A DNA stretch of 64,000 nucleotides from an uncultured Bacilli bacterium (GCA_947632325.1 CANROU010000001.1:7997-71996); one strand, 5' to 3'; positions 23,195-29,756 are shown, counted from the first letter of the stretch. The notes: generated by a model not told the origin, from the letters alone. Made by a program: numbers and translations.

Positions 23195-23893
23195 ATGAAA
23201 ATTGTCGCTAGTAAAAATAATTTATTTAATATGGATTCTTTCCTTAATGATAGTAATAATAAAGATTACGTAACAGGCCTTTTTATTAATATCGCTACAA
23301 CCAAAAATAATCATTTAATTGTTTTTGATTATGTTAATAATAATTATAGTGATTTAGTAAATGTTGAAGAACAAACATTTGATGATATCCATAATGAATC
23401 AATTTTTTCATTAGAGGAACTTTTACAAAAACTTATTACGACAAATGTCCAAAAAGATATTTATCTAAATTTATTATTGAATTTTAATATAATTGATAAT
23501 AAAAAAATAGACTCATATATCGAACAAGTATTTTGCATAATTGATAAATATCCTACTATTTCTTTTCATCTTTGTAGTAACAACCAAAATCTTTTAGCTA
23601 ATTTAAAAACCTATGATCGCAATTATCCTATTGGATATATTATTGGTCCAGGGGGATATATTGATGTTGATTTTTATATTTTTTCAATTCATTTTTTAAA
23701 TACTAAAATCTTAAATGAACAACATGCTTTACAAAAAGGTATGTTGATTCAATTACTAGATTGGGCTGATCTGCAATATGTATGCAATTTTCTAGAAAAG
23801 GAAAAGGATTTTTTAACAAATGGTTTATGTGAAAAAATAAGCTATATTGGAGCTTATCCAGATATTATTCACAATAGTTTAAAAAATAAATAA
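23195..23893 (+). CDS. hypothetical protein
   Basis: ORF from the ATG at 23195, preceded by AGGTGA. The longer track ORF's N-terminus overlaps the prfB leader and is AT-rich, low-complexity sequence. Confidence 0.4.
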   Translation: MKIVASKNNLFNMDSFLNDSNNKDYVTGLFINIATTKNNHLIVFDYVNNNYSDLVNVEEQTFDDIHNESIFSLEELLQKLITTNVQKDIYLNLLLNFNIIDNKKIDSYIEQVFCIIDKYPTISFHLCSNNQNLLANLKTYDRNYPIGYIIGPGGYIDVDFYIFSIHFLNTKILNEQHALQKGMLIQLLDWADLQYVCNFLEKEKDFLTNGLCEKISYIGAYPDIIHNSLKNK

Positions 23894-23907
23894 TTGACCT
23901 TAGCCAA

Positions 23908-24408
23908 TTATTTATTTTCATTTTTACAAACAATTCCTTGTTGGGAATACATTTTTTTTATGCCAGATACAGTAAATTTATTATCACTATTCATAAATTC
24001 TTGTAGTGTCTGATGATCTTCAGCATATTTTTTAGTATCTATCTTATTATAATCAATCACAACAGTTCCAATCATTTTTTCTTTTTCCATCTTTGTCTCA
24101 TATTTAAACCCACTATAAATATCATCCAAAGTTTTATAAAGGTCTTTTATTTGTACCTCATAATCTTCAAGCATATCTTTGTTTTTAGATGTCATAGTAG
24201 TATTGTAGGTAATCTTATTAACAATATCTTTTTGATAATTTACTTGATAAGTAGATAATATTTCATAACCTTTTTCTTCATCAATTGTTTTATAATCACA
24301 AGTAAAACTTTTTCCTTTAAAAAGACTCGATTTATTAAGCAACACTACTCCTACTATGATAATACAAATGGCTATAATGCCTATTATAAGCGATATTTTT
24401 TTTTTCAT
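23908..24408 (-). CDS. hypothetical membrane-anchored/lipoprotein-like protein
   Basis: N-terminal KKKISLIIGIIAICIIIVGVVLL anchor. No recognisable domain. Confidence 0.4.
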   Translation of the reverse strand: MKKKISLIIGIIAICIIIVGVVLLNKSSLFKGKSFTCDYKTIDEEKGYEILSTYQVNYQKDIVNKITYNTTMTSKNKDMLEDYEVQIKDLYKTLDDIYSGFKYETKMEKEKMIGTVVIDYNKIDTKKYAEDHQTLQEFMNSDNKFTVSGIKKMYSQQGIVCKNENK

Positions 24409-24497
24409 TTTAAATCCTATCTCCTATTTTCATATTATAACAATTATACACCACGATTAACTATTTAAGCAAATATAATTATTTCATGTTAATTAAA

Positions 24498-26032
24498 ATA
24501 GGGATATCCCGAAATAAAATACCCCATATATATCCTTGTGTTACAATAATTTTTGTCCAGAAAATTATGAATGGAGGTATATATATGGGTCGTAATTATT
24601 CTAACAAAAATTTATCTATTTTGGAAATAGGAAATATTGAATTTTATTTAAATGAAGGGATATCTCCTGCTGATATAGCTAGGTTATTAAATAAAGATCC
24701 TTCTGGAATTAGAAAAGAAATTAAAAAATATTCTTCTTATTTTGGAAATCAAAGAAAATGTTCTAATTGTTTAAACAAGGATAATTGTCATCAAAAATAT
24801 CTTTGTGAAGATATTAGAGATAAGGTTAAATGTTCTCAATGTAAGTATTGTTCTTATGCTGTTAAAGTTTGTCCCAATTATAAAGTAATTATTGATTGTG
24901 AATTATTAAAAAAGAACCATCATGTTTGTAATGGGTGTCATTTATATTTGAAATGTAAAAAAGTTAAAATTAAATATCACGCTGAAACTGCTATTAAAAT
25001 GCACAATGCTGTTCAAAGAGTTTCTCGTATTGGTACTAAGGTTGATACTTTCCCAGAAGAATTTAAATCTTATGTATCTAGACTTATCAAAAATGGTATC
25101 TCTCCTCAAGTCATTATGAATACTCTTCCAAATAAATTTTTGATGTTCAAAGTTTCTACTCCTACTGTTTATTCTTGAATTGATAAAGGCTTATTAGACT
25201 GTTGTAATTTAGATTTAAGAAACAAAGTTTCTAAAATTAGATATGGTACCAATACCGAAAAAAGAAATACAGTTAGAAATCATCAATTAAATGGCAGAAG
25301 TATTGAAGACCTATCAGAGGAAGAAAGGATCAATAGACCTCTTGGTGTTGTTGAATTAGATACTGTTGAAGGCATTAAAGGTGGTGAACTTCTTTTTACT
25401 ATTATGTTCCCTTGTTTCTCTTTAATGCTTGGTTTTAAAATAAAAAGAAAAACTCAGGAAGAAATTGGCAATATATTAGATATGTTAGAGGATAAATTAG
25501 ATTCTTATTTTTATGTTCTTTTTAGAAAAGGAATTCCTGATAATGGTTGGGAATTTCTTGACTTTGATTTATTAGAAAAATCTATTCATAAGGATTTACA
25601 TAAAAGAATGGAAATTCATTATACACATTCTTATGCTTCGTATGAAAAGCCTCATATTGAAAATAATCATATCCTTTTAAGATGGTTAATCAAAAAAGGT
25701 TATGATATCACTCTTTTATCTGGTGATGATATTTTAGATATTATCAATCGCTTAAACAACTATCTTAGACCAAAAAAGAATTTTAAAACACCACTTCAAC
25801 TTTTAGAAGAAGAACTTGGAGATTATATTCTAGATTTATTAAATTTACATCATATTCCTATCGACCAATTAAATATGAAGGATATGATAATAAAAAATCA
25901 AGAGCGAACAAAGTGAGTTCATCTTGACTCTTGATTTTTTATTTCATATTTTTACCATTATTTTCCCAATAAAGTTTATCTTTATTGGTTATCAATTAGT
26001 AAAAACGGGATTTCTATTCGGGATTTCCTAAC
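24498..26032 (+). mobile_element. IS30-family insertion sequence (~1.5 kb) with imperfect terminal inverted repeats
   Basis: Left end ATAGGGATATCCCGAAATAAAATACCC (24498-24525). Right-end reverse complement TAGGAAATCCCGAATAGAAATCCCG (26003-26032). Encodes an IS30-type DDE transposase. Confidence 0.6.
24585..25916 (+). pseudogene. IS30-family DDE transposase, one in-frame TGA at 25179-25181 (otherwise a continuous 443-codon frame)
   Basis: N-terminal HTH plus a Cys-rich insert. DDE region ELDTVEG...IPDNGWEF...HSYASYEKPHIENNHILLRWLIKKG matches the IS30 signature. ORFs 24486..25178 and 25404..25916 are in the same frame and separated only by this TGA. Confidence 0.7.
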
Positions 26033-27988: not shown

Positions 27989-28086
27989 TAATATCATCTC
28001 CCTTTCTTATTTTGATTAACTTATATCTTTTGTTAAATTTCAAAATTTTTTCATAAAAAAATGTCAACAAAAATGTTAACACTTTT

Positions 28087-28941
28087 CTAAACTGTAACCA
28101 ATTCTTTTTTTAATAATTCAATAACCAAATTAATTGCATTCATTATTTCATCATAATCAATATCAGATACATAAGATTTTTTATTTTTATAATTTTTAAA
28201 ATTTAATCTTAACTTATCACTTTCTTTTATTTTACTAAAATTATATATGATTTTATCTATATCAAAATCAGTTTCTCTTCTTTCAAAAGTGTTTTTAATT
28301 GCCTTTACTAAAACTTTTTTATCAATTTTATCATAATATCTAGTTAATAAAATATACAAATCATAAAAATCTTTCGTTCTTGTATTCATAATATTATCAG
28401 AAATGAATGTTTCAAATTTTTCAGCAATAATAGTTTCCATATTAAAAGCCATAATGTTAATATAAGAATCATCAAACATACATTTATATCTATATTCTAA
28501 TTCTCTTGGAGTAATTGGATCACCTACTGTTATATCAATAGATAGTGGCACTTGTAAATGTTCTTTATATCCTAGAAGGTTTACTCTAATTCCTCCATAT
28601 TTATCATTTAATCTTATTTCTCTTGATTTCTTTAAACTATAACTTATTCCATCTTCACAATCTATATTAATAATCTCATTTATAACTTTCTCTATTTTTC
28701 TTTCATCTAGTGGAATTCCTTTTATCATAGTATCCATATCTTGTGTAGTTCTACGATCATCACCAAATATTGCAGATAGTAATAATCCACCTTTTAATAT
28801 AAAATTGTATTTATATGCACTTATTGATATTCTATATAAAAGCCTTTCAAAAAAATACATTTGCATAATATCTTGAGGTTCTAAGTTATTTTCATGGGCT
28901 TTAGTCTTTACTTTAATTTTTAAATCTTCAGCATCAATCAT
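28087..28941 (-). CDS. abiEii: AbiEii-type nucleotidyltransferase toxin (DUF1814; type IV TA / abortive infection)
   Basis: 284 aa. Nucleotidyltransferase-like GG...D.D core (KGGLLLSAIFGDDRRTTQDMD). Paired with the upstream AbiEi-like gene by a 1-nt overlap. Confidence 0.65.
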   Translation of the reverse strand: MIDAEDLKIKVKTKAHENNLEPQDIMQMYFFERLLYRISISAYKYNFILKGGLLLSAIFGDDRRTTQDMDTMIKGIPLDERKIEKVINEIINIDCEDGISYSLKKSREIRLNDKYGGIRVNLLGYKEHLQVPLSIDITVGDPITPRELEYRYKCMFDDSYINIMAFNMETIIAEKFETFISDNIMNTRTKDFYDLYILLTRYYDKIDKKVLVKAIKNTFERRETDFDIDKIIYNFSKIKESDKLRLNFKNYKNKKSYVSDIDYDEIMNAINLVIELLKKELVTV

Positions 28942-29534
28942 TATATTAGCACCTCCAAATATTTATTGATATCATCTAGAATATTAAATACTTTTGCATA
29001 ATCAAGAAGTAAAGGAATATTTCTCTTATTTTTATCCTTCAAATATTCTGTTATAGCATATTTAATTATTTCTATATCTTGATTATCTCTATTCCTAAGT
29101 AAATCACATATACATCTTTCTGCATTATAACATTTTATAAATTGTCCTTGAGGACTTTTCATCTCAATTAAGCCTAAATCAAATAATTCTTTTTTCACAA
29201 AATGTAGTTTCACTTTTTTAATTTTCCTTAAACTTCCATTATATCCCCTATTTACTGTAATATGATATTCACTTGGAACCGACTGGCAAAGTTCTAAAAA
29301 ATATAAAGCTGTTTCATAAGAAAAAACTGCATTATTTCCATAAATTAAATTGAAATATTCATCACCCCAAGTAGAAGGCAAAACATATAAACCTTTTTTT
29401 ACTCTTTCTAGTTTTTTGTTATTAACTAATCTTGTCAAAAAAATCTTATTTATATTTTTACTCACTACTTCTTTTGTGGTAATAATTCCATTATTTTTTT
29501 TAGCTAAATTTAATATAATATCTTCTTTATTCAT
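28941..29534 (-). CDS. abiEi: AbiEi-type antitoxin / transcriptional regulator (N-terminal wHTH)
   Basis: 197 aa. wHTH NGIITTKEV...KKLERVKKGLYVL followed by an AbiEi C-terminal-like domain, immediately upstream of the AbiEii-like gene. Confidence 0.6.
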   Translation of the reverse strand: MNKEDIILNLAKKNNGIITTKEVVSKNINKIFLTRLVNNKKLERVKKGLYVLPSTWGDEYFNLIYGNNAVFSYETALYFLELCQSVPSEYHITVNRGYNGSLRKIKKVKLHFVKKELFDLGLIEMKSPQGQFIKCYNAERCICDLLRNRDNQDIEIIKYAITEYLKDKNKRNIPLLLDYAKVFNILDDINKYLEVLI

Positions 29535-29756
29535 TTTTTGTTCCTTTCTACATACATTATATCATATATGTATGTTAAAAGGAACATGCTTTTTGCTTTT
29601 TTCATAAAAATTAAAAAATGTTAACATACTTTATTCGTTAACATTTCCTTTAATTTCAAATGATTTTTTAGTTTTTTTAATTTTCTTTGCAAACAAATTA
29701 CAAATTTGCAAATATTTTATTTTTTTAAAATAGCTTGCAAACCCTTATAAAACTTA

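Follow-up and report, generated by a model that had tools for sequence, protein, structure and literature searches.

Between secA and prfB of an uncultured Bacilli bacterium lie 6,675 bp of DNA, and the question is how this material came to be there. The window analysed is the whole 64-kb stretch of low-GC DNA (about 27%; GCA_947632325.1, CANROU010000001.1:7997-71996), within which the secA-prfB gap was the region examined. The original prediction, made from this sequence, saw in positions 23195-29700 a degraded mobile and defence island that splits a conserved linkage. We find that most of the gap consists of the remains of two or more small mobile elements, which were inserted successively at the 3' end of secA. 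Site-specific integration at the secA terminus, tandem accretion, and then decay by deletion and by entry of an insertion sequence (IS) is, as judged from the sequence, the likely origin of the region, and we hold this account with good confidence.

The nearest public relatives of the host are metagenome-assembled genomes (MAGs) of uncultured gut 'Bacilli/Tenericutes' of the RF39 type (Clostridium sp. CAG:710, CAG:302 and CAG:433, Candidatus Scybalousia and Candidatus Faecimonas), with a top SecA identity of 87% (L001; related loci are referred to by such numbers). The order of the genes on the minus strand is cspX, hpf, secA, the gap, prfB, two yitT paralogues and ftsE/ftsX. Conspecific metagenome contigs from at least four independent samples, 99.6-99.8% identical, share the arrangement including an interrupted transposase gene, which argues against an assembly artefact. 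All genes that had been named in the prediction are present in their places according to Pfam, PADLOC and NCBIfam (Table 1). The linkage of secA and prfB is also real, i.e. prfB lies downstream of secA, on the same strand, in no fewer than 12 related loci, but their adjacency is not, as the gaps measure 1.2-9.8 kb and the genes are never neighbours. In other words, the secA-prfB gap is a recurrent integration hot spot and not a single disruption. GC content does not distinguish the gap from its uniformly low surroundings; no tRNA gene was found anywhere in the window, and no Rfam family within the gap.

A copy of the secA end inside the gap

The 3' end of secA, together with the sequence directly downstream, recurs within the gap. 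The alignment of positions 29800-29710 with 27144-27058 has 76% identity over 91 nucleotides (nt), with an E-value of 5e-11 against the 6.8-kb region, and 80% identity across the central 51 nt. The left edge of the repeat is sharp and lies at -44 nt from the secA stop codon. The first copy encodes the C-terminal zinc motif of SecA, CGSGKKYKNCCGK followed by the stop codon, and its downstream part includes the TTATAAGGGTTTG motif; in the second copy the same TTTATAAGG(G)TTTG motif comes after the SecA-like tail. The secA ends of L009, L022 and L018 resemble this second copy more closely (87-90%) than the window's own secA end does, which fits a foreign copy that was carried in by an element.

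Between the two copies there is a remnant of 2.6 kb with its genes in the orientation of secA: abiEi, abiEii, an integrase stub and a GNAT acetyltransferase gene. The internal copy is best read as the right attachment site (attR) of this proximal remnant and, at the same time, as the former left attachment site (attL) of the Fic remnant beyond it. Additional secA-end copies that might delimit the Fic remnant, or else the region as a whole, were sought in 22800-29590, and only 27144-27058 was found. The direct repeat expected at the island borders is therefore there, but one of its copies is internal and the outer borders are not marked by it.

Next to the first copy are short tandem repeats, which are probably arm-type binding sites of an integrase. 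The region was compared with L088 (GCA_947632395.1), a locus of another species. Within the 91-nt block the two sequences are different, and identity sets in directly after it. This favours a crossover near the element-proximal edge, with the host's own secA end retained, and suggests that the exchange took place at about 29710.

The proximal remnant: AbiE pair, integrase stub and acetyltransferase

Codons 1-41 of the stub align to residues 1-41 of the approximately 430-residue Arm-type tyrosine integrases of relatives, and about 390 codons are gone. Nucleotide homology to the relatives' integrase genes (int) ends at about 27876, which marks an internal deletion with its junction near 27872-27876. 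No other integrase sequence was found in the window. The predicted Arm-domain fragment of about 50 codons is thereby confirmed and, together with the duplicated target site, it bears out the claim that an integrative element left this material. As the window element has residues 1-41 only, i.e. no catalytic domain, it corresponds to a remnant of the cis-mobilizable element (CIME) kind. The acetyltransferase matches general acetyltransferase models only.

The AbiE pair is complete. AbiEi matches PF13338 (E 9e-9) and the PADLOC AbiEi model (202 bits over positions 4-195 of 198), and its residues 1-197 align to PDB 9hlo_A (phmmer E 4e-32) and to 6y8q. AbiEii matches PF08843 over positions 1-235 of 238 (E 2e-37), the PADLOC model with 300 bits and PDB 9hlo_B with an E-value of 6e-48, and its sequence shows the KGG..DMD and KDFYD motifs. 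The start of abiEii overlaps the stop of abiEi (ATGA at 28941). The assignment to defence, as a type IV toxin-antitoxin (TA) system, stands with these matches. The inverted repeat around the -10 box of the abiE promoter is kept in seven divergent loci (L032, L119, L122 and L110-L113), the flanks of which are just about 68% identical. AbiEi autorepression is established for the AbiE family, and the conserved repeat fits it. The pair would act as an autoregulated addiction and abortive-infection module in which AbiEii is restrained and repressed by AbiEi.

Although the secA genes of the window and L088 have a nucleotide identity of about 71% only, the two loci are 97-100% identical over window positions 29707-28031, and the AbiEii protein is the same in both. 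In the shared block are the arm repeats, both hairpins and, between these, abiEi and abiEii; it extends to the ribosome-binding site and ATG of int, beyond which the sequences diverge. The discrepancy between the identities of the block and of secA points to a recent transfer of the AbiE cassette between species, i.e. of the left part of the element. The integrase gene appears to have been lost independently in the two hosts after this transfer.

The order secA-abiEi-abiEii-int is also found in L119, L121 and L122, three distant metagenome loci in which the AbiE proteins are 69-73% identical. In L119 and L121 the integrase has at least 230 residues and runs to the end of the contig, and in L122 it is split (197+221 residues) and followed by three cargo genes and a copy of the secA end; L032 and L111 have secA-abiEi-abiEii as well. 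The recurring order suggests that the proximal remnant is a decayed member of a recurrent type of element that carries AbiE between attL and int.

The hairpin upstream of abiEi is homologous to the one ahead of int, and this raises the question whether the AbiE pair is an autonomous cassette that entered the attL-int spacer of an element already in place, between two copies of a terminator hairpin. Similar hairpins on either side (29649-29613 and 28089-28054) would agree with such an insertion, as would the 12 relatives in which int follows secA without an intervening abiE, and the block shared with L088, which extends from beyond the att region as far as the start of int. We nevertheless consider a separate cassette quite unlikely. 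The att-abiEi-abiEii-int order is conserved in the divergent L119, L121 and L122, which indicates an old and stable architecture; the shared block takes in the arm repeats and the int upstream region, i.e. the backbone of the element; and the hairpins may be plain homologous terminators.

Two further observations concern this gene pair. A cargo of three genes recurs downstream of abiE-int in L122 (12293-14264) and L113 (12195-14221); it encodes a protein of about 363 residues without a family match, a DUF4325 STAS-like protein and a 175-residue protein, and may be another defence-type module. Conspecific contigs break within or just after abiEii, which is consistent with a cassette common to several co-resident genomes.

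The Fic remnant, the insertion sequence and the genes beside prfB

The Fic block starts directly after the internal copy of the secA end, and this position marks that copy as what was once the attL of an older element. With L011 the module (26044-27066) shares 93.6% nucleotide identity, whereas the SecA proteins are just 78% identical; with L021, in which Fic stands directly after an integrase remnant inside an att-bounded module, it shares 80%.

The gene has a sigma70-type promoter (TTGACC at 27011-27006, a 17-nt spacer and TATAAT at 26988-26983), and the catalytic motif HPFVDGNGRTSR, of the HxFx(D/E)GNGRxxR type, is intact. The protein also carries its own inhibitory S-x-x-x-E-G motif, SNGIEGN, which aligns to TVAIEGN of FICD, and its top PDB matches are human FICD structures (E 4e-36). 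We take it to be a class II, self-inhibited AMP-transferase. The gene had been predicted to encode an AMPylator resembling a type II toxin, and the toxin part of this is not borne out. A class I toxin of the VbhT/VbhA type was rejected on the grounds that the inhibitory motif lies in the same polypeptide and that no small antitoxin open reading frame (ORF) adjoins the gene. The link of Fic to defence is a candidate one, made by candidate models of PADLOC: PDC-S04 (123 bits) and a partial SoFic match (104 bits, positions 45-265 of 361). Membership of the SoFic family itself was rejected, as the NCBIfam SoFic equivalog model gave 28.8 bits with a cut-off of 550.

The 3' end of the gene was altered by an IS30-family element. 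Inverted repeats of the element are found at 24487 and 26043. Homology to L011 and L021 is lost precisely at its right end, two codons ahead of the original Fic stop, where the right inverted repeat begins, so that the C-terminus of Fic was changed from LL to VNLS. The stop codon of Fic now lies inside the terminal repeat of the IS (26028-26043). No target-site duplication was recognised at the imperfect repeat ends, and the insertion may have deleted sequence that formerly lay beyond Fic.

The IS30 element that had been predicted is thus present, but its gene is not intact. The transposase reaches the NCBIfam model NF033563 (91 bits, cut-off 80) solely with the in-frame TGA read through, so we regard it as a pseudogene; apart from this single TGA it is complete, and the residues of the DDE core, D259, D319 and E359, are invariant in alignment A2. 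The conspecific contig L089 has the TGA as well. In the host TGA is a stop codon, given that its prfB carries the classical +1 frameshift site. The interruption could be a TGG-to-TGA nonsense change or could come from a donor that reads TGA as Trp; with regard to such a code-4 origin, the two homologues with Tyr at this position, each 30% identical, say only that an aromatic residue is expected.

The two genes next to prfB, a hypothetical one (hyp232) and one for a lipoprotein-like protein, had been counted as parts of the island, which probably does not hold. L001 has homologues of both at the same position beside prfB, in the same order and orientation; identity is 52% at the amino acid level for hyp232 (67% at the nucleotide level over 786 nt) and 30% for the lipoprotein. 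On account of this shared place, order and orientation the genes are probably resident and fast-evolving, and the segment 23195-24408 probably lies outside the island. hyp232 has no match in Pfam, NCBIfam, PADLOC or the PDB sequences. PADLOC as a whole recognised AbiE, assigned candidate models only to Fic, and gave no match for the acetyltransferase, hyp232 or the lipoprotein. The L001 gap measures 3.8 kb and has a different island content, with a Doc-like Fic-fold protein, the remains of an integrase and a RhuM-like protein that matches the PADLOC candidate PDC-M59A.

The original reading of the entire stretch 23195-29700 as one degraded island, left by a single integrative element, can now be weighed. 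It is true that accessory-looking genes stand together between two housekeeping genes and that their GC content is uniformly low. Against this, the internal copy of the secA end splits the region and divides a recent abiE-int'-GNAT part from an older Fic remnant; the two blocks differ in their closest relatives (L088 and L011, respectively), in identity and in transfer history; and hyp232 and the lipoprotein gene are conserved beside prfB in L001, whose island content is otherwise different. A single island is therefore very improbable.

The secA 3' end in related genomes

Eighty related secA loci were fetched, 58 of which were usable, with at least 400 nt after secA. In 22 of the 58 a duplicate of the locus's own secA 3' end is found 0.1-8.6 kb further downstream, and some loci have two extra copies. 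Relative to the stop codon, the left edge of the duplication is at -41 to -46 nt in 19 of these 22 loci, and at -32 or -69 in the other three. In L062 the final copy of the secA end is about 175 nt ahead of prfB, so that removal of the att-bounded DNA would bring secA and prfB together there. Related contigs that end within 400 nt after secA are frequent (20 of 80), as is expected of a variable or repeated locus in short-read assemblies.

An Arm-type integrase N-terminus is found 180-255 nt past the secA stop in 12 of the 58 loci and within 2.3 kb in six more. Integrases that align over their full length in a single match are present in L027, L037, L047 (two), L074 and L075, and the domain order Arm-DNA-bind_4, SAM_3, Phage_integrase was confirmed in L047 and L075. 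In L047 a Mob_Pre relaxase is encoded by one element and an HTH_36 Rep-like protein by another. Truncated or split integrase genes resembling that of the window occur in L001, L021, L049, L050, L052/L055, L058, L061 and L062.

The spacers between attL and int follow a shared plan: the stop codon, the TTATAAGGGTTTG motif, tandem 8-9-mers, the CCTTATAAATAAAGGG motif, a hairpin with a T-run, the ribosome-binding site and int. In 12 relatives (examples are L047 12490-12721 and L052 12487-12728) there are three to four tandem 8-9-mers, and these are specific to the element (GTTTGCAAA, TGTGCACA, TGTCCACA, GTTTCCA, TTGACCAC, TGTGTGCA). They look like arm-type binding sites that co-vary with the Arm domain of the integrase. 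Taken over these loci, the secA 3' end appears to be a lineage-wide hot spot in RF39-type gut Bacilli.

It might be argued that the content of the gap was inherited vertically and that the repeat arose by chance or by slippage, with no role in mobility, given that conspecific contigs of several samples share the arrangement. This is extremely improbable in view of the E-value of the repeat (5e-11), its recurrence in 22 related loci mostly with the same left edge, the integrase stub between the copies, and the near-identical AbiE across species with diverged secA genes.

The cargo survey covered 116 ORFs from 31 bounded gaps. It was very diverse, i.e. most ORFs had no homologue in the other surveyed gaps, and a few housekeeping genes were also present in gaps bounded by prfB alone. 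Recurrent cargo consisted of KilA-N (4), RhuM (2), Fic (2), AAA_14, NUDIX and AbiEi-like proteins; among the PADLOC candidate families PDC-S22 was found in five ORFs, and S05, S01 and S23 were also found. The KilA-N, RhuM and Phage_rep_O-like/HTH_36 proteins in this cargo, as well as AbiE homologues in Mycoplasma and Streptococcus phage records, could indicate that the remnants come from prophages or phage satellites and not from conjugatively mobilised islands. We hold such an origin to be very unlikely, as no capsid, terminase or other structural genes occur in the window or the 31 bounded gaps, the elements have just 1-8 kb, one of them has a Mob_Pre relaxase, and the nearest IMG/VR integrases are at most 48% identical and do not lie beside secA.

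A more far-reaching reading is that the secA 3' end of RF39-type gut Bacilli serves as a lineage-wide, integron-like exchange platform for defence and accessory genes. We find this rather unlikely. If it were true, short att-flanked modules, many of them with one or two genes and no int, would be captured, stacked and swapped in trans by the Arm-type integrases of related elements, and AbiE would be a conserved leading module between attL and int that stabilises the array. A recent integron-like spread of int-less cassettes was considered for the KilA-N cassette, which diverges in step with secA and gives no support in that case.

L009 has a second, partial copy of secA (18378-19631; residues 414-830), 7.4 kb downstream of the complete gene and 64% identical to the window SecA, which far exceeds the usual 44-nt duplication.

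Origin of the region

The anatomy of the gap, its repeats, the homologies and the signatures of transfer are observations, and the following scheme would account for them. An Arm-type tyrosine integrase would recombine the joined ends of an element with a site in the secA 3' end. The element would carry a look-alike of the last 44 or so nt of secA and of the adjacent downstream sequence, so that SecA stays intact and a pseudo-secA end is left at the far side of the element. Newcomers would insert beside secA and displace older elements toward prfB. The newest arrival would occupy 29756-27145 (attL, arm sites, abiEi-abiEii, int, cargo, attR), and an internal deletion in it would have left 41 int codons. 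By this deletion the proximal element would have lost the ability to excise itself, and it could move only in cis, with the help of a related integrase. An older arrival would have been whittled down to the Fic gene, the last codons of which were entered by the IS30-family element that later gained a stop codon. The AbiE operon, the self-inhibited Fic with its own promoter and the acetyltransferase may be cargo that still functions. We infer the chemistry of recombination, the order of the events and the activity of the cargo.

Several points weigh against successive integration at secA. No arm-type repeats were found adjoining the 27144 copy. The two copies of the repeat are just 76-80% identical and do not place the crossover point, which the usual model puts at the gene-restoring left edge, unlike the comparison with L088. 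No second secA-end copy bounds the Fic remnant, the separate status of which is argued from its position and its homology to L011 and L021. Many of the related sequences are MAG contigs, so that split integrases could be assembly errors. In conspecific DNA there was neither an empty site nor an intact copy of this exact element, and look-ups with the exact proteins gave only short contigs of the same arrangement; integration and excision are deduced from sequence. No relaxase or origin of transfer (oriT) was found among the window ORFs, and the Mob_Pre relaxase occurs in just one related element (L047), so that the term 'mobilizable' is not established for the family. Known plasmids and phages carrying the island were also sought; the matches were confined to distant homologues of Fic or AbiE, with nucleotide identities of 68% or less over short stretches.

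Surroundings of the gap

Just upstream of cspX-hpf-secA there is an agr-like quorum-sensing cluster (33425-36324). An EssC-like protein of 1531 residues with FHA and FtsK/SpoIIIE domains is encoded at 829-5424 on the minus strand, 24 kb from secA. Its homologue in L088 (11726-16363) lies about 4.5 kb after secA, beside a VirD4/TraG-like gene, and this difference in position shows that the neighbourhood was rearranged between the two species. The sole Rfam family above threshold in the window is an L31-Firmicutes ribosomal-protein leader (RF03156, 40522-40550, minus strand, 37.6 bits).

Table 1. Features of the secA-prfB gap and of its surroundings (window coordinates; sizes in amino acids, aa, or nucleotides, nt; HTH, helix-turn-helix)
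Feature	Position	Strand	Remarks
prfB	21980-23081	-	canonical GGAGG..CTT TGA C +1 frameshift site at 23020-23006
hyp232, hypothetical ORF, 232 aa	23195..23893	+	
lipoprotein-like ORF, 166 aa	23908..24408	-	sub-threshold DUF1307 only
IS30-family insertion sequence, ~1.56 kb	~24487..26043	+	imperfect terminal inverted repeats of ~36-40 nt
IS30 transposase gene	24586-25916	+	HTH_38; in-frame TGA at 25176-25178
Fic AMP-transferase, predicted class II (FICD-like), 314 aa	26028..26972	-	N-terminal HTH; PF02661, E 1e-22
repeat copy 2, pseudo-secA 3' end	27058..27144	-	encodes a tail ending in CSSGKKYKYCCGM and stop
GNAT acetyltransferase, 160 aa	27246..27728	-	PF00583, E 2e-13; right end of proximal remnant
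integrase stub, 53-codon ORF	27836..27997	-	Arm-DNA-bind_4, E 5e-6
terminator-like hairpin between abiEii and integrase start	28054..28089	-	-15.6 kcal/mol, z -3.8
abiEii, predicted nucleotidyltransferase toxin, 284 aa	28087..28941	-	Pfam, PADLOC, PDB 9hlo_B
abiEi, predicted antitoxin and autorepressor, 197 aa	28941..29534	-	Pfam, PADLOC, PDB 9hlo_A and 6y8q
abiE promoter/operator	29539..29587	-	19-nt inverted repeat TGTTCCTTTTAACATACAT / ATGTATGTAGAAAGGAACA flanking -10 TATAAT at 29561-29556
terminator-like hairpin and T-run upstream of abiEi	29613..29649	-	-10.4 kcal/mol, z -3.0
tandem TTTGCAAA / TTTGTAA repeats, two to three	29686..29712	-	
repeat copy 1, putative attL-type site	29710..29800	-	last 44 nt of secA and ~47 nt downstream
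secA	29757-32249	-	
AgrB	33425-34027	+	agr-like cluster; Pfam, from gene calls on conspecific contig L081
39-aa peptide gene	within 33425-36324		agr-like cluster
HATPase_c_5 kinase	34239-35534	-	agr-like cluster; Pfam (contig L081)
LytTR regulator	35515-36324	-	agr-like cluster; Pfam (contig L081)

Comparison with known systems

Integrative elements that accrete in tandem at the 3' ends of conserved genes, decay there and carry TA or defence cargo are known already. What appears to be new is the zinc-finger-coding end of secA as the target, its lineage-wide use in the RF39 group and the conserved attL-abiE-int layout. No description of secA as an attachment site was found in the full-text literature searched, the coverage of which is incomplete, so that this is weak evidence of novelty. 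With this locus the secA 3' end joins the protein-gene targets of integrative elements, and uncultured gut Bacilli with small genomes are seen to swap defence cargo across species at one fixed chromosomal address. For annotation, this explains why many MAG contigs of the group break right after secA, and the pseudo-secA end provides a simple marker that delimits accessory DNA. Elements with differing tandem arm repeats could be a natural series for the study of integrase arm-site specificity.

The individual parts resemble known families to different degrees. The insertion sequence has the HTH_38 domain, DDE core and size of the IS30 family, and imperfect terminal inverted repeats, but differs from it by the in-frame TGA, by a target duplication not being recognised and by a cysteine-rich insert of about 100 residues that it has in common with Clostridium and Butyrivibrio homologues (30% identity). 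The Fic protein is like class II Fic proteins (human FICD/HYPE; PDB 3cuc and 4rgl) in the HPFVDGNGRTSR motif, the N-terminal S-N-G-I-E-G and about 230 aligned residues; unlike them it has an extra HTH_17-like DNA-binding domain at the N-terminus, and its last residues are replaced by the IS.

The abiE pair shares with the AbiE and AbiG systems (Streptococcus agalactiae AbiE, 6y8q; AbiGI/GII complex, 9hlo) the overlapping genes, full-length alignment, the inverted repeat in the promoter, the N-terminal winged HTH of AbiEi and the DUF1814 nucleotidyltransferase of AbiEii. It differs in that the sequence similarity is distant and that the pair is placed between attL and int; it is known here from sequence.

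The closest parallel to the whole arrangement is the ICESt1/ICESt3-CIME system at fda of Streptococcus thermophilus, in which integrative and conjugative or mobilizable elements (ICE/IME) and CIMEs reportedly accrete in tandem at the 3' end of a housekeeping gene. In the RF39-type elements the target is secA, instead of fda, guaA, rpsI, rpmG or a tRNA gene, and the hosts are uncultured gut Bacilli of reduced genome size; the elements, of 1-8 kb, are very small, with one relaxase among those examined and no conjugation genes seen. The two systems agree in the tyrosine integrase beside attL, the target at the 3' end of a conserved protein gene with duplication of that end, the arrays of att-flanked modules, some of which have no int, the TA and defence cargo, and the decay via internal deletion.

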